From: Candidatus Latescibacterota bacterium
GTDB taxonomy: Bacteria; Latescibacterota; UBA2968
NCBI GenBank assembly: GCA_965204745.1
Contig: OZ242010.1
Coordinates: forward strand, 1,024,001-1,088,000
Direction: 5' to 3'
DNA: 64,000 nt
The stretch's first letter is position 1; each line of letters opens with the position of its first letter. The notes below the pieces were generated by a model that was not told the origin of the DNA, did no database searches, and saw only the letters and a program-made list of their open reading frames with translations. A program made the position numbers and the translations under genes. Positions 53,915 through 60,747 of this stretch are shown here, piece after piece.

Positions 53915-54781
53915 CTAGTCGCGGAGGACGGAGAGGAGAAATTGGCCGTAGCTGTTTTGCGACATGGTTTGCGCGAGTTGTTCGAGTTGCGCCGCGTCGA
54001 TGTAGCCCTTGCGATAGGCGATTTCCTCGAGGCACGCGATTTTGAGGCCCTGGCGTTCCTGGATGGCTTGGACAAAGCCCGTTGCTTGGTGGAGCGATTC
54101 AAAGGTGCCCGTGTCGAGCCAGCAATAGCCGCGACCGAGCAATTCGACTTTGAGCTGTCCGCGGTCAAGGTATTCGCGGTTCACGTCTGTGATTTCGTAC
54201 TCGCCGCGTGCCGATGGCGTGAGGTTCATCGCGATATCGACCACATGGCGGTCGTAGAAATACAGGCCGGGAACCGCGTATCTCGATTTGGGATGTTCGG
54301 GTTTTTCCTCGATGCCGACGACATTGCCCTCGTCGTCAAATTCGATGACGCCGTATCGCTGCGGGTCCGTGACAGCATAGCCAAAGATGAGGCCGCCCTC
54401 GGCGAGTTGGACCGCGCGTTGCAACACTTTGCCCAAGCCGTGCCCGTAAAAGATGTTGTCGCCAAAGATGAGGCACACCGGGTCCATGCCGATAAATTCG
54501 CGGCCGATGACAAAGGACTGGGCAATGCCTTCGGGACGGGGTTGTTCGGCGTAGGTGATGTTGAGGCCGACCCATGACCCGTCTTTGAGCAGGCGGCGGT
54601 ACAAGGGCAAGTCTTGCGGGGTTGAGATGAGCAGGATGTCGCGGATGCCGGCCAGCATGAGGACGGACAGGGGATAGTAGATCATGGGTTTGTCATAGAC
54701 GGGTTGGAGTTGCTTGCTGACCACGCGCGTGATGGGATAGAGGCGCGTGCCAGACCCGCCCGCGAGTAAGATGCCTTTCAT
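53915..54781 (-). CDS. rfbA: Glucose-1-phosphate thymidylyltransferase
   Basis: [32 protein letters not shown]; AAGGAG RBS. Confidence 0.96.
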
Positions 54782-54922
54782 GGATTTCTCCTTTGGACGA
54801 AGAGACGAATCAGCGAATCGCAGAGGCGGTGCCTCCGTGCCCGCCCATGGATGAACCGTTTGTTCTTGCGTTTCACAATATAACACCTGAATCGGGCTTT
54901 GGTTCGGATTTTGGAGGTGGCA

Positions 54923-55765
54923 ATGAGCGATAAAGGGTATGCGAATCCCGAGTTGTTGATTTCGCCGGAGGATCTGCATGCGTGCGATGCGGACATGTGC
55001 ATCGTGGATACGCGCCCGACCCATGCGTACGTTGCCGGGCATATTCCGGGGGCGATTCCTCTGGATCTGTACGGGATCAGTTTGAACGATACCCGAGCGC
55101 AGGCGTTTGAGGCGTTTATGTGGATGCTCGGTTATTTGTTCGGCAGCCGGGGGATTGGCACGGATAAGCCGGTGGTGTGGTGCGAAGAGGATTCCGGGAT
55201 GCGGGCCGCGCGTGGATTTTGGATCTGCGACTATCTGGGCCATCCGGACGTGCGCGTGCTCGACGGGGGATGCCGGGCATGGCGGGCTTTGGGATATGAC
55301 TGGACAACGGATTGCGCGGAGGTGGAACAGGCGGCGTTTGTCCCCGCTCCGGTGCCTGCACGTCACATGGGGGCAGATGCGCTCTATGGCCTTTTGGGAC
55401 GCGATGACGTGGTGCCGCTGGATACGCGGAGCAGCGATGAGTATTTCGGACGCAATGTGCGGGCCGCACGCGGGGGCGCGATTCCGGGCGCGGTGCATAT
55501 CGAATATGTGAACAATTTGGACGAGACGGGCGCGTTCAAGCCGGCAGATGAATTGCGCGCGATGTACGAGGCCGCGGGGATTTCGGCGGAGAAGGAAATC
55601 GTGCCTTACTGACAGGGCGGCTACCGCTCTTCCCACACGTACCTGGCATTGCGCTTGCTCGGTTACGAGAAGGTGCGAAATTATATCGGGTCGTGGAAAG
55701 AGTGGGGAGACCGGCTGGATTTGCCGGTCGAGATGCCGGAGGCAGTGGATAGTGGCAAGAGGTGA
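54923..55765 (+). CDS. Tandem-domain rhodanese/sulfurtransferase (SseA-like), probable selenoprotein (TGA 55610-55612)
   Basis: GHIPGA, LDGG, GGAIPGA; after the TGA the frame continues [29 protein letters not shown]. Confidence 0.85.
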
Positions 55766-55990
55766 GAGGCAAGAGGTGAGGGAGCGCATGGCTTTCTTAA
55801 AGGTTTGCATCCATGGCTGTTTTGATGGCTTTGGGCGAATGGATCACGCCATGAAAAACCAACCCCACCTCGCGCAATCCCCTCGCAAAACCGCTCACAG
55901 TTCCCCCTTGTATCTTCCTCGCAGGCACAGGCGTAGCCTACAACGAAGCGTAGCGAGTAACGGGGCTAGGGGGGTAGGTCCAAAATTTCC

Positions 55991-56020
55991 TTGACAAGAA
56001 ACGACGTGGTACCTTAGCTT
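55991..56020 (+). promoter_or_regulatory. Sigma70-like promoter of locus B
   Basis: TTGACA-18 bp-TAGCTT; homologous to 46354-46383. Confidence 0.55.
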
Positions 56021-56098
56021 GTCTCCACCCTCGTTATTTATTCCCCGCAGACAAAATCCATGCCTGCACAACTCATTCTATTTTTCAGGCGGGATCAC

Positions 56099-56206
56099 AT
56101 GTTGACTGCCATTTTTCGACGTTGTTCAAACCTGTTTGGAGGCCACCGTTCCCCTGCGAAAAGTGGGGTTCATGGCTCCCATTTTCGTCACAGTCTGTTA
56201 GGCTGA
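56099..56206 (+). CDS. Putative 35-aa leader peptide
   Basis: MLTAIFRRCSNLFGGHRSPAKSGVH..., homologous to the ORF starting at 46271 (-), which has an AGGAGG RBS. Confidence 0.35.
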   Translation: MLTAIFRRCSNLFGGHRSPAKSGVHGSHFRHSLLG

Positions 56207-56241
56207 TCAGTACAGTGTACTTCCCTCGAGAGGAGTCTGAT

Positions 56242-59200
56242 ATGACGCCCCGCTACACTCATTTGTTGGCCCTGGTCGCGCTGGGCATGCTGATGGCATC
56301 AGGGCCGGCTTTTGCCCAAACCGACTACGATACGGACAACGACAACCTGATTGACATCACCTCCTTGTTGCAACTCAACGCCATTCGCTATGACCTCAAC
56401 GGCGATGGTGCCGTAGCCAATACGGATACCATGAACTACAACGCCGCCTTTCCCAACGCCATGGCGAGCATGGGTTGCGCCGCTACCTGCACCGGCTACG
56501 AACTGATGAGCAACTTAGACTTCGACACGAACGGTGACGATACCATCACTGTCGCCGACGACTACCCCAACTGGGATCCCATCGTCGACCCCGGCAACGA
56601 CAACAGCGGCTACACCGCCATCTTTGAAGGCAACGGCCACACCATCTCCCGCCTGACCATTACCGACCGGAACAGCCGGGACGTAGGGCTGTTCGATGAG
56701 CTGGAGCCCACCGGCATTATCCGCAATGTAGGGATCATCGACGCCAATATCCGAAGCGGCGGCGCGCTCGACGGATACGCCCCCCTGGTAGGCTACAACG
56801 CACGCGGCACCATAATCGCCAGCTACGCCCGGGGCGGCTCGGTCACCGCCACCATGCAAAGCTCCAGCATCGGCGGACTGACCGGCCGCAATTCAGGCAG
56901 CATCATCGCCAGCTACTCCACCGTCACGGTCATCGGCGGCAACCATACCAGGGTCAACGCCGGCGGGCTGACCGGCACCCTGGAAACCTTTCTCAGCAAC
57001 ATCGGCCGGATCACCGCCAGCTATGCCACCGGCGCCGTGTCCGCCACCGGCAATAACGCCACCCGCGGCGGTTTGGTGGGAAATTCCCCCAGCAGTGCCA
57101 GCGTAATTGCCAGCAGCTATTGCACCTCCGGGAGCTGTATCGGCTCCAACGTCGGCGGCAGCCTTGACGCCACCACCCAAACCGCCACCGCTTTGCAAAC
57201 CCCCACCGCCTACACCGGCATCTACGCCAACTGGAACATCGACCTGAACGATGATCGCGTCCCCGACAACCCGTGGAACTTTGGCACTGCCAGCCAGCAC
57301 CCAACCCTGAACACGCCCAGCCAGCGGGTAGCTGACCACGACAGCGACAACGACGGCCTAATTGACGTGACTTCCCTGTTGCAGTTGAACGCCATCCGCT
57401 ACGACTTGAACGGCGATGGCTTGCCCACCGGCACCAACGCCGACACCATCGCCTATGCCAGTGCCTTTCCCGGCGGCGACATAACCGCCAGTAGCGGCCG
57501 GATGGGTTGCCCGTCCGCCGGCTGTAATGGCTACGAACTGCTCAACAACTTGGACTTTGACGAGAACAACGATGGCGCAATCACCTCAGCAGACGCCACC
57601 TACTGGAACAGCGGCGCAGGCTGGCTGCCCATCGGCACAAACGCCAACCGATACGCAGGCAATTTCAAGGGCAACGGCTATACCATCAACAACCTGTTCA
57701 TCAACCGCGGCTCCACCCACCTAAACGCGCTGTTCTCCGCAATCACCGGCCGCGTCGAAACCCTCGGCGTAACCAACGCCACTGTAACGGGGAATCAATA
57801 TACCGGCATTCTGGTAGCCGTCAATGCCGGCACAATCGTCGCCTGTTACACCAGCGGCGCGGTAAGCGGCAGTGCCGCTTTTAGCGGCGGACTGATCGCC
57901 TACCTGGATGGAACTCTCACCACAAGCTACTCCACTGCATCCGTCAGCGGCGCCAACCGAGTCGGCGGCCTGGTAGGTGCCATAAACAGCGGCTCTCTAG
58001 CAAACTCATACTCCACCGGCAACGTCAGTGCCACTTTTAGCGGCGTCGGTGGGCTATTAGGCCATCTTATCGCGGGCACCGTATCCAACAACTTCTGGGA
58101 CACCTCAACCAGCAACCAGGCCACCAGTGTCGGCGGTAGCGGTGTTGTTGGCAAGACGACTAGCGATCTCCAGAGCCCCACTACCTACGGTGCCACCACC
58201 AGCGACACCTACTACGGCTGGAACGCCAACCTCGACGGACAAGCCGGCAATGACGATCCGTGGACCTTTGGCACGGCGTATCAGTATCCCGTATTGAAAT
58301 ATGACGGCATGGACACCGCGGTACAGTTCGCTGCACAGCCCGTGCGTTATGACACGGATAGCGATGGCCTCATCGAGGTTTCGAGCTTGGCACAACTCAA
58401 TGCCATGCGCTGGGATCTCAATGGCGATGGTGCCATAGACGCAAGTGCCTCAACCAGCGATACGACCGCCTACAACACCGCATTCCCCCGCCGCGACTCG
58501 CGCTCTGGTAGCCGGATGGGTTGCCCTTCCGCCTGCACCGGCTACGAACTGCTCAACGACCTGGACTTTGACGAGAACAACGATGGCGCAATCACCTCAG
58601 CAGACGCCACCTACTGGAACAGCGGCAACGGCTGGCAACCAATCGGCACACAAAGCTCCGCATACGCCACCACTTTCAAGGGCAACGGCCACATTATCAA
58701 CAACCTGTTCATCAGCCGAGGCTCCATAAGCTACGTCGGGCTGTTCGGCAACAATGGCACCGGCGGCCGCATCGAAACGCTCGGCGTAACCAACGCCAAA
58801 GTCACGGGATCGCACGGTAGCGGCATCCTAGCCGGAGGCAACGAGGGCGGCACAGTCGTCGTCTGTTTCAGCACCGGATCCGTCTCCGGCAACCAATACA
58901 CCGGCGGATTAGTAGGCTACTCCACCACCGGCACCATCTCCACGAGCTACTCCACTGCATCCGTCAGCGGATCTTCAAGCGTCGGCGGGCTGGTGGGTTA
59001 TCACGCTGGCTCCGTAACAGACACCTATTCCATCGGCAGGGTCTCCGGTAGCGGAGCCAATGTAAGCGGGCTAGTAGGATCCAAACTTAACGCGGCCAGC
59101 ACCTCCCGAAGCTTTTGGGACACCCAAACCAGCAACCGGAGCAACAGCAACGGCGGCGGCACGGGCAAGACCACCAGCGAGCTCCAGAGCCAGACCACCT

Positions 59201-60747
59201 ACGGTGCCACCAGTAGCGATCCTTACTTCAACTGGAACGTCAACCTCGACGGACAACCCGGCAACGACGATCCGTGGACCTTCGGCGCGATGGATCAGTA
59301 TCCGGTCTTGAAGTATGCCGGCTTTGACACCACCGCGCAATTTAAGCTCCAACCCGCGGTAGTGACGTTGGCACTGACACCCTCGTCGATCTCGGAAAAT
59401 GGCGGGATGAGCACCGTGACCGCGACGCTGGCACACCCATTGAGCGCGGCGACGACAATCACGGTGCGTCCTGTGGCGGGTGCTTACACGGTGGCGGCGG
59501 ATTCGACGATCACCATCGCGGCCGGGAGCACGGCGAACGCGTCGGACACGGTGGTCATCACAGCGGTGGACAATACCCAAGACGCGCCTAATCGCGACGT
59601 GGACATGTCCGTTGTGGCAGACAACGCCCAGGGCAGTGTGGTCCGCCCGACCGAGATAACGATCACAGATGATGACGCGCCGCCGAGGCTCTCGATTAGT
59701 TCGCCGAGTGCGGTTGAGGGCACTGCCCTGACGTTCACCGTTAGATTGAATGCGGTGAGCGGCAAGGAGGTGACGGTGGCGTATGCAGACGCGGGCACAG
59801 GTAGCGCGACTTCGGGGACGGACTACACCGCGCTTACCGCAGGGACCCTGACCTTCGCGGCGGGCACGACCACGACCAGCCAGACTATCGCTGTTTCTGT
59901 GACCGGCGACTCGGATGATGAGCCGAACGAGACCGTGATCGTGACTTTGAGCAACGCGGTCAATGCCACCTTTGATGGCGGGGCGACGAGCCTCACCGGC
60001 ACCGGTACGATTATCGATGACGATGGCATGCCTGCGCTGAGTATCGGTTCGCCAAGCGTGATTGAAGGCGCGACCGGCGCGACCCTAACCTTTCGGGTGT
60101 ACCTACGCCCGATGCACACGGCACCAGTGACGGTGGCGTATGCAGACGCGGGCACGGGCACCGCGACTTCGGGGACCGATTACACCGCGCTCACCGCAGG
60201 GACCCTGACCTTCGCGATGGGCGATACCATCCAGACCATCCCTGTTTCTGTGACCGACGACTCGAATGATGAGCAGAACGAGACCGTGATCGTCGAGTTG
60301 AGCAGTGCGACCAATGCGACCATAAGCACGGCGCAAGGCACAGGGACGATTATCGATGACGAAACCCCGAGTGCCAACTTGGATGTGGATGGCGATGGCC
60401 GGGTGAGATTGTTCTCGGATATAATCCTGGTCATTCGATACGTCCTCTTCTTCCGGGAAGAGGCCCTCCTCAGAGGGAACGTCATCGAGCCAACTGCCAC
60501 GCGCAAGACCGCTCAAGAAATTGAACCCTACCTCGACACGTTGGTCAATCAGAACATTCTCGATGTGGATGGCGATGGCGATGTGAGGCTGTTCTCGGAT
60601 ATAATCCTGATCATTCGATATGTCCTCTTCTTCCGGAACGAGGCCCTCGTCAGAGGGAACGTCATCGAGCAAAATGCTACGCGCACGACCGCTCAAGCCA
60701 TTGAACCCTACATCCGAAGCCTCTATCCCGCCTCCCACTTCCAATGA
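56242..60747 (+). CDS. Large secreted modular surface protein B: signal peptide, 3 GLUG-like modules, 1 Ig/cadherin-like repeat, 2 Calx-beta, 2 dockerin-like repeats
   Basis: Paralog of 42630-46082; GAGGAG RBS before ATG 56242. Confidence 0.85.
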   Translation: MTPRYTHLLALVALGMLMASGPAFAQTDYDTDNDNLIDITSLLQLNAIRYDLNGDGAVANTDTMNYNAAFPNAMASMGCAATCTGYELMSNLDFDTNGDDTITVADDYPNWDPIVDPGNDNSGYTAIFEGNGHTISRLTITDRNSRDVGLFDELEPTGIIRNVGIIDANIRSGGALDGYAPLVGYNARGTIIASYARGGSVTATMQSSSIGGLTGRNSGSIIASYSTVTVIGGNHTRVNAGGLTGTLETFLSNIGRITASYATGAVSATGNNATRGGLVGNSPSSASVIASSYCTSGSCIGSNVGGSLDATTQTATALQTPTAYTGIYANWNIDLNDDRVPDNPWNFGTASQHPTLNTPSQRVADHDSDNDGLIDVTSLLQLNAIRYDLNGDGLPTGTNADTIAYASAFPGGDITASSGRMGCPSAGCNGYELLNNLDFDENNDGAITSADATYWNSGAGWLPIGTNANRYAGNFKGNGYTINNLFINRGSTHLNALFSAITGRVETLGVTNATVTGNQYTGILVAVNAGTIVACYTSGAVSGSAAFSGGLIAYLDGTLTTSYSTASVSGANRVGGLVGAINSGSLANSYSTGNVSATFSGVGGLLGHLIAGTVSNNFWDTSTSNQATSVGGSGVVGKTTSDLQSPTTYGATTSDTYYGWNANLDGQAGNDDPWTFGTAYQYPVLKYDGMDTAVQFAAQPVRYDTDSDGLIEVSSLAQLNAMRWDLNGDGAIDASASTSDTTAYNTAFPRRDSRSGSRMGCPSACTGYELLNDLDFDENNDGAITSADATYWNSGNGWQPIGTQSSAYATTFKGNGHIINNLFISRGSISYVGLFGNNGTGGRIETLGVTNAKVTGSHGSGILAGGNEGGTVVVCFSTGSVSGNQYTGGLVGYSTTGTISTSYSTASVSGSSSVGGLVGYHAGSVTDTYSIGRVSGSGANVSGLVGSKLNAASTSRSFWDTQTSNRSNSNGGGTGKTTSELQSQTTYGATSSDPYFNWNVNLDGQPGNDDPWTFGAMDQYPVLKYAGFDTTAQFKLQPAVVTLALTPSSISENGGMSTVTATLAHPLSAATTITVRPVAGAYTVAADSTITIAAGSTANASDTVVITAVDNTQDAPNRDVDMSVVADNAQGSVVRPTEITITDDDAPPRLSISSPSAVEGTALTFTVRLNAVSGKEVTVAYADAGTGSATSGTDYTALTAGTLTFAAGTTTTSQTIAVSVTGDSDDEPNETVIVTLSNAVNATFDGGATSLTGTGTIIDDDGMPALSIGSPSVIEGATGATLTFRVYLRPMHTAPVTVAYADAGTGTATSGTDYTALTAGTLTFAMGDTIQTIPVSVTDDSNDEQNETVIVELSSATNATISTAQGTGTIIDDETPSANLDVDGDGRVRLFSDIILVIRYVLFFREEALLRGNVIEPTATRKTAQEIEPYLDTLVNQNILDVDGDGDVRLFSDIILIIRYVLFFRNEALVRGNVIEQNATRTTAQAIEPYIRSLYPASHFQ

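Follow-up and report, generated by a model that had tools for sequence, protein, structure and literature searches.

Is the UGA codon in the active-site loop of a bacterial sulfurtransferase gene read as selenocysteine (Sec), and where in the messenger does the signal for that reading lie? The question is raised by a gene at positions 54923-55765 of a 64,000-nt stretch of DNA from a Candidatus Latescibacterota bacterium (positions 1,024,001-1,088,000 of contig OZ242010.1), referred to here as the window. The gene and all features described for it lie on the forward strand. It is almost certainly a genuine selenoprotein gene, belonging to a known family, and very probably, to judge from its sequence, encodes a two-domain rhodanese similar to RhdA and the thiosulfate sulfurtransferases, with a catalytic Sec specified by the UGA at 55610-55612. 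As to the recoding signal, we see a somewhat better than even chance that it is bipartite, composed of a long-range helix, called H1, and a distal hairpin, called hairpin B. The selenoprotein family is already known; a signal that is both bipartite and distal is probably unusual.

A rhodanese gene with UGA at the catalytic position

With translation table 11 the open reading frame (ORF) ends at ...EIVPY-TGA, this TGA being the one at 55610-55612. When TGA is translated as U, the same frame extends over a further 50 codons to a second TGA (55763-55765), which is the stop codon proper and is replaced by TAA or TAG in some relatives. The coding sequence then has 280 codons plus the stop, and Sec is codon 230. 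ATG 54923 is the likely start, homologs opening with the same MSDKGY, and a Shine-Dalgarno-like GGAGG read from the sequence at 54913-54917, 5 nt 5′ of this ATG, may be the ribosome-binding site.

Pfam domain PF00581 was found twice in the product (E 1.3e-32, the best stretch being residues 151-262). The N-terminal domain (54980-55288; positions 1078980-1079288 of the genome, G000) has no catalytic Cys or Sec, and the C-terminal, catalytic domain (55373-55708; 1079373-1079708) is matched when read through one TGA. This is the build of a tandem rhodanese, with two domains and the catalytic residue within the C-terminal one. RhdA of Azotobacter vinelandii (PDB 1e0c) aligns with the protein from end to end (residues 6-271 against 4-271, E 2.7e-39), U230 falling in the column of the RhdA catalytic Cys. 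Like RhdA and the tandem thiosulfate sulfurtransferases, the window protein has two rhodanese domains and a catalytic loop at the same place, but the loop is CQTHHRS in RhdA and UQGGYRS here. Scores of 93.5 bits against the 3-mercaptopyruvate sulfurtransferase family NF008557 (cut-off 250) and of 31.4 bits against the selenoprotein rhodanese family NF041203 (cut-off 115) do not make it a member of either, and the protein is a rhodanese outside both of these named equivalogs. Its C-terminal tail (55730-55765) is longer than in most relatives.

A 'rhodanese-related sulfurtransferase, COG2897' appeared among the new Sargasso Sea selenoprotein families in 2005 (PMC1088965), and a 'Sulfurtransferase COG2897' in the Olavius symbiont survey of 2007 (PMC1976440) and the GOS survey of 2008 (PMC2398784). 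A 2026 review distinguishes five rhodanese selenoprotein forms, of which forms 2 and 4 have a UxxG motif (PMC13188914); its main text contains 0 occurrences each of 'Latescibacter' and 'Poribacteria'. The window protein resembles the COG2897 selenoproteins in its rhodanese fold, in the position of Sec at the catalytic Cys, in its U-Q-G-G, which fits UxxG, and in being predicted from Sec/Cys homology. From the COG2897 label, the two-domain build and the motif, we infer that it corresponds to 'form 4' of the review, the two being compared by description only.

Among homologs the column of codon 230 holds either TGA or a Cys codon. An ortholog was found in 40 of 41 related genomes, G000 counted. 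Of these loci 38 were parsed, and 35 have TGA at the column, the other three having TGT or TGC. The two that were not parsed are L061, which shows TGA (as L084 in the genome_contigs set), and L062, which is split into two pieces, the second with one TGA. TGA is kept in all 20 same-genus genomes. The best 80 loci of genome_contigs come, by record titles, from metagenome-assembled genomes (MAGs) of Candidatus Latescibacterota and Candidatus Poribacteria, and TGA is present in 77 of them; the other three, including L103, which the pattern had missed, have TGC. Metagenome loci have TGA at the column in 27 of 80 cases. Among distant homologs, collected in a second scan seeded with a Cys homolog, 75 of the 76 motif-bearing loci (of 80) have a Cys codon (59 TGC and 16 TGT) and one has TGA. 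A pattern scan of genome_contigs returned at least 112 Sec rhodaneses among the 120 matches listed, which include MAGs labelled Nitrospinota and Pseudomonadota. Past the TGA, protein-level conservation extends over the 44-50 codons that remain, up to the end of the fold, and includes YLALRLLGY. Base-call error is excluded because contigs of three other studies (runs X3, X5 and X8) carry the TGA of codon 230, without difference; the contigs of run X10 stop short of it.

The genome, a single contig of 5.48 Mb that is 97.65% complete, contains a full Sec system. This includes a tRNA-Sec gene (70.1 bits against a cut-off of 47, called as SeC with anticodon tca by ARAGORN) together with selA (585.4 bits), selB (377.6 bits) and selD (372.8 bits), all over their curated cut-offs. 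selA adjoins selB, and SelB is of the bacterial type, its TIGR00475 match spanning positions 1-580 of 581. Sec would be inserted at the UGA by the organism's own SelA, SelB, SelD and tRNA-Sec and, by analogy with the chemistry of Cys rhodaneses, its selenolate would carry the transferred sulfur (or selenium) as an Se-S or Se-Se adduct.

The initial annotation had proposed a hidden selenoprotein here, with a frame running on for 50 codons, TGA at the catalytic Cys of a tandem rhodanese, and a 280-aa Sec enzyme in a Sec-decoding organism. All of this is supported by the sequence checks described above: the pairing of TGA with Cys among homologs, the retention of TGA in close and distant relatives, the identical codon in independent contigs and the Sec system of the genome. 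It had also held that Sec versions of the family are known but often missed, which agrees with the published COG2897 selenoproteins and with the content of the protein database, where 22 of the best 120 matches are proteins of 229 or 231 aa covering 81% of the query, one of them named 'sulfurtransferase'.

A long-range helix and a distal hairpin past the UGA

RNAalifold was run on alignment A2, which has 76 Sec-form rows, and gave a consensus with two elements. Helix H1 pairs columns 30-37 with 104-111. In the window its 5′ arm (CCGCTCTT) lies at 55624-55631, +12 to +19 after the UGA, and its 3′ arm (AAGAGTGG) at 55698-55705, +86 to +93, in the K-E-W codons of GSWKEWG. Hairpin B, at 55709-55729, has a G+C-rich stem of 7 bp (55709-55715/55723-55729) and a 7-nt loop, TGGATTT (55716-55722), and is the candidate SelB-binding part. 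Earlier RNAalifold runs on pieces of 90 nt and 60 nt, too short for both H1 arms, gave no structure. No Rfam family was found at 55500-55850, the only listing being a chance match of 14.1 bits against a cut-off of 39. No description of the RNA signal of the COG2897 Sec family was found in passages on these selenoproteins (PMC1088965, PMC1976440, PMC2398784, PMC13188914).

Both elements are conserved in the Sec forms only. H1 cells are paired to 99.7% in 76 Sec forms as against 64% in 78 Cys forms, and those of hairpin B to 96.4% as against 59%. None of 500 shuffles equals the observed pairing or covariation score, and shifting the 3′ partners lowers pairing to 34-55%. In single-sequence minimum free energy (MFE) folds, H1 is present in 64 and hairpin B in 71 of the 76 Sec forms, compared with 0 and 4, respectively, of the 78 Cys forms; even Cys forms with identical amino acids (RSS, WKEW, DRLDLP) are without the complementarity. 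Among the matches listed in the pattern scan, H1 is fully paired in 108 of the 112 Sec rhodaneses and hairpin B has at least 6 of its 7 pairs in 109, and 8 chance matches have neither element. Over 78 Sec forms the baseline of synonymous variability is 0.7-0.9, and it falls to about 0.35 at exactly two places, codons 229-240 and 261-270; the inner 45 nt of the H1 domain show free variation, with a synonymous entropy of 0.8-0.88 at codons 244-255.

Pairs that have changed on both sides in Sec forms number two in H1 and two in hairpin B (6 + 6 cells in the latter). Covariation was followed in 99 distinct Sec forms on a tree made from the upstream part of the gene only. The central H1 pair, 33/108, is CG in 80 forms, UA in 16, UG in 2 and CA in 1 and has switched separately at least three times on the tree; it ranks second of 79 by mutual information and runs opposite to the trend in G+C content at third codon positions (GC3). 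In hairpin B, pair 117/133 is CG in 84 forms, UA in 14 and UG in 1, and pair 118/132 is CG in 86, AU in 10 and AA in 3, the three AA cases having a register shifted by a few bases and a loop AGUUA or AGUUG. For each covarying pair of hairpin B the true partner ranks first of 79 by mutual information.

The published model of the bacterial Sec insertion sequence (bSECIS) has an apical loop of 3-9 nt, an upper stem of 4-16 bp, an MFE of -7.5 kcal/mol or lower, a G at one of loop positions 1-2, mostly followed by G or U, and a spacing of 16-37 nt from UGA to the apical loop, and some putative bacterial SECIS elements fail it (PMC13188914). We scanned these criteria from the UGA to +120 in the 99 Sec forms. 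Hairpin B is the only hairpin that has a suitable loop, stem and energy in all 99, its loop lying at +104 in 96 forms and at +107 in three. It combines the 7-nt loop and 7-bp stem with an energy of -14.5 kcal/mol, and the TGGA that begins the loop and provides its early G is invariant in 76 of 76 A2 rows. A qualifying hairpin at the 16-37 nt spacing is present in just 2 of the 99 forms, and none of the hairpins inside the H1 domain qualifies in more than 14.

These properties suggest, at odds that we put slightly above even, a split SECIS in bacteria, in which the SelB hairpin lies about 100 nt past the Sec codon and is held at the canonical distance by an 8-bp helix. Hairpin B would probably be the SelB site and H1 the bridge. 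By pairing +12..+19 with +86..+93, H1 would loop out 82 nt of coding sequence, both arms counted, and the path from the UGA would then run over 11 nt, the base of H1 and 3 nt to hairpin B, giving it an effective start of +15. This would be where the SECIS hairpins of the genome's other selenoprotein genes start: in five such genes (selD, an ArsC/Spx-like gene and three AhpC-TSA candidates) the hairpin begins at +11 to +18 as judged by eye, and a hairpin scan of the same five places the loop at +17 to +24 in four. The minimal element of E. coli fdhF was reportedly placed at 11 nt by Liu et al. in 1998. With such a split layout the highly constrained active-site codons would be freed from encoding a hairpin. 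In a structural model of SelB on the ribosome, the conserved loop G is about 20 nt from the UGA, with about 13 nt connecting (PMC4605307).

The proposed element shares with a canonical bSECIS a hairpin with a 7-bp stem, a 7-nt loop and an early loop GG, within the coding region, and differs from it in that an 8-bp long-range helix occupies the place where the hairpin usually starts. It shares with the archaeal and eukaryotic SECIS of the 3′ untranslated region (UTR) a signal that is linearly far from the UGA. In contrast to these, it lies in the coding region, has a bacterial-type hairpin and a bacterial-type SelB with no SBP2-type factor implied, and would have its distance spanned by RNA pairing. 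No long-range or distal bacterial SECIS was found described in a literature search confined to main texts.

Several observations weigh against a bipartite signal of this kind. In the linear sequence 103 nt separate the UGA from the loop of hairpin B, which violates the 16-37 nt rule, and the spacing falls within that range only when the H1 domain is looped out (11 + 3 + 7 = 21 nt). The loop also departs from the full published pattern, since N1 and N2 would be U and U, and the hairpin scan accepts perfect stems only, so that a bulged local SECIS could escape it. In H1 the amino acids Y-R-S-S and K-E-W dictate six of the eight pairs, which leaves just two free to vary. One of these, pair 36/105, ranks only fourth to fifth of 79 by mutual information, level with clade markers, follows local GC3 (0.64 against 0.76-0.82) and has four uncompensated C.A cells among the 99 forms; clade or base composition could explain it, and the covariation support for H1 rests mainly on pair 33/108. 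Finally, the 159-nt fold of the window sequence (z = -2.61) retains hairpin B but contains no H1, the 5′ arm of H1 being paired with the C-terminal tail. The tail RNA, which rivals H1 in this fold by pairing with 55617-55633, is window-specific and not conserved.

Other readings of the signal and of the codon

The initial annotation had pointed to a hairpin directly following the TGA, inside a weaker outer stem. Both stems are present, the outer one pairing 55610-55616 with 55642-55648 and the inner one, hairpin A (55614-55630), having 7 bp (55614-55620/55624-55630) and a 3-nt loop, CTA, at 55621-55623. Hairpin A is probably an alternative fold and not a SelB site. If it were, or if another structure right after the UGA were, Sec would still be inserted, but through a local signal, and H1 and hairpin B would serve mRNA stability or pausing. 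This is the alternative that survives best, and we consider it unlikely. It accords with the textbook rule that a bacterial SECIS lies immediately downstream of the UGA (PMC13188914), with the position of hairpin A next to the codon and with the strong synonymous constraint that begins directly past it. Pairing, too, is higher in Sec than in Cys forms (92.9% against 69% of cells), but 38 cells are unpaired in the 76 distinct Sec forms, none of the pairs has changed on both sides, and hairpin A is present in the MFE fold of just 10 of these forms. At third codon positions of its 5′ arm constraint is no stronger than in Cys forms, and the constraint on the bases that it shares with H1 (55624-55630) is equally explained by H1. 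The loop, which starts at +9, is 8 nt from the UGA as against 16-37 nt in the model, has no G in the window and so fails the bSECIS loop criterion, and has as its first base the third position of a Gly codon, which varies freely; the other SECIS hairpins of the genome start at +11 to +18. The local 71-nt fold around the TGA is no better than that of shuffles (z = -0.52, 53 of 200 folding at least as well). Hairpin A competes for the same bases with H1, the better supported of the two, and is probably not the recoding signal.

Less likely again, by our estimate, is that Sec is inserted through hairpin B acting alone at a distance, in the manner of the archaeal and eukaryotic 3′ UTR elements, or through the whole H1-closed domain acting as one large SECIS, with H1 serving as no bridge in either case. 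The covariation is indeed strongest in hairpin B and thinner in H1, and there is some synonymous constraint in the looped-out part, at codons +11 to +13. But H1, at 99.7% pairing, is specific to Sec forms and has decayed in the Cys forms nested among them (see below), the inner 45 nt vary freely, and the inner hairpins qualify in at most 14 of 99 forms. Moreover, the known bacterial SelB touches ribosome and hairpin together, over about 13 nt from the A site to the loop (PMC4605307).

It is very improbable that an amino acid other than Sec (Cys, Trp or Gly) is inserted at the UGA, whether through near-cognate decoding or through a changed genetic code. The codon is followed here by C, a weak termination context, which would favour such a reading. 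A general change of the code is not the explanation because ordinary stop codons (TAA, TAG or TGA) close this gene and its relatives; the genome has the full Sec system, and the RNA structure that accompanies the UGA is specific to Sec forms and decays once the codon is TGC. Most improbable of all is a true stop in a truncated gene, a pseudogene or an assembly error, with an untranslated frame beyond it: public gene calls do end at this TGA, as in the 229- and 231-aa proteins mentioned above, but their product would stop short of the active-site loop and of the last part of the fold. The next 44-50 codons show conservation of the protein sequence, synonymous sites changing freely at codons 244-255, and more than 100 genomes retain the TGA, where homologs have Cys; the TGA also recurs in the contigs of other studies.

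Origin of the Sec forms, genomic setting and implications

A protein tree was made of 228 distinct forms, 127 with Cys and 101 labelled Sec; one 'Sec' tip, L185, was set aside as a regular-expression match in another frame. The Sec forms make up one clade within the Cys forms, and 7 Cys forms are nested inside it. In each of the seven, 1-2 pairs of H1 and 2-3 of hairpin B are mismatched. In these trees, Sec would have originated once in the rhodanese family and would later have been replaced by Cys several times, with the RNA elements decaying each time. A MAG labelled uncultured Pseudomonadota carries two Sec-rhodanese paralogs, L333 and L352. These differ on both sides of H1 pair 36/105, T-A in one and C-G in the other, and one of the two retains hairpin B despite two amino-acid changes within the hairpin.

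The other selenoprotein genes of the genome lie outside the window. selD (G000:C1:2158634-2159765, reverse strand) directly adjoins the tRNA-Sec gene and itself encodes a selenoprotein, with one in-frame TGA, at 2159735; the SECIS hairpin of selD consists of a 6-bp stem with a GGU loop at +21. An in-frame TGA and a hairpin were also seen in the ArsC/Spx-like gene. Three AhpC-TSA (peroxiredoxin-like) matches, at G000:C1:5439109-5439480 (reverse strand), 2439543-2440034 (forward) and 764867-765217 (reverse), each have one in-frame TGA at the expected place of the redox Cys, with a hairpin starting at +11 to +16, and are candidates for further selenoproteins. Family searches did not find a formate dehydrogenase alpha in the genome (best match 18 bits), and the single genome match of the CMD family is without TGA. 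These searches replaced a de novo genome scan by codon score and hairpin, which was dropped: it had missed selD and the ArsC-like gene and returned mostly antisense frames. Among the returns of the dropped scan were four near-identical stretches at G000:C1:708758-719459 (forward strand), in each of which an in-frame TGA is followed 18 nt later by one and the same 7-bp hairpin. Their appearance is that of repeats and not of selenoprotein genes, and the frame may be an antisense one in a repetitive gene.

The neighbours of the rhodanese gene offer no functional lead. In the window they include an NTP-transferase gene and an SDR gene on the other strand. Downstream, at 56122-60747 on the forward strand and 356 nt past the rhodanese gene, is an ORF of 1541 aa that contains internal block repeats, Calx-beta domains and a GLUG motif and probably encodes a large protein of the cell surface or one involved in adhesion. 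In Poribacteria the gene is found next to MatE, amidohydrolase and MoeA genes. Even the most widely shared neighbour occurs at no more than 30 of 67 loci, in a comparison whose ORF clusters include antisense shadows. No promoter-like site was found in 54700-56200, and a terminator-like site at 56165-56179 is no more than shuffles give.

For annotation, the consequence is that the versions of this enzyme in public protein sets end after 229 or 231 aa and lack the active site. Gene finders that look first for a SECIS, within the 16-37 nt range, would miss genes of this kind if the bipartite signal is true. Production of recombinant selenoproteins in bacteria is known to be hindered by the need to encode a hairpin in the codons that follow the UGA, and a bridged distal hairpin, if true, would be a natural template for avoiding this constraint in engineering. 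The gene itself is widespread in sponge-associated MAGs of Latescibacterota and Poribacteria, where the same signal, if it operates as proposed, would be a natural exception to the rule that a SECIS directly follows the UGA, and one made by RNA folding alone.

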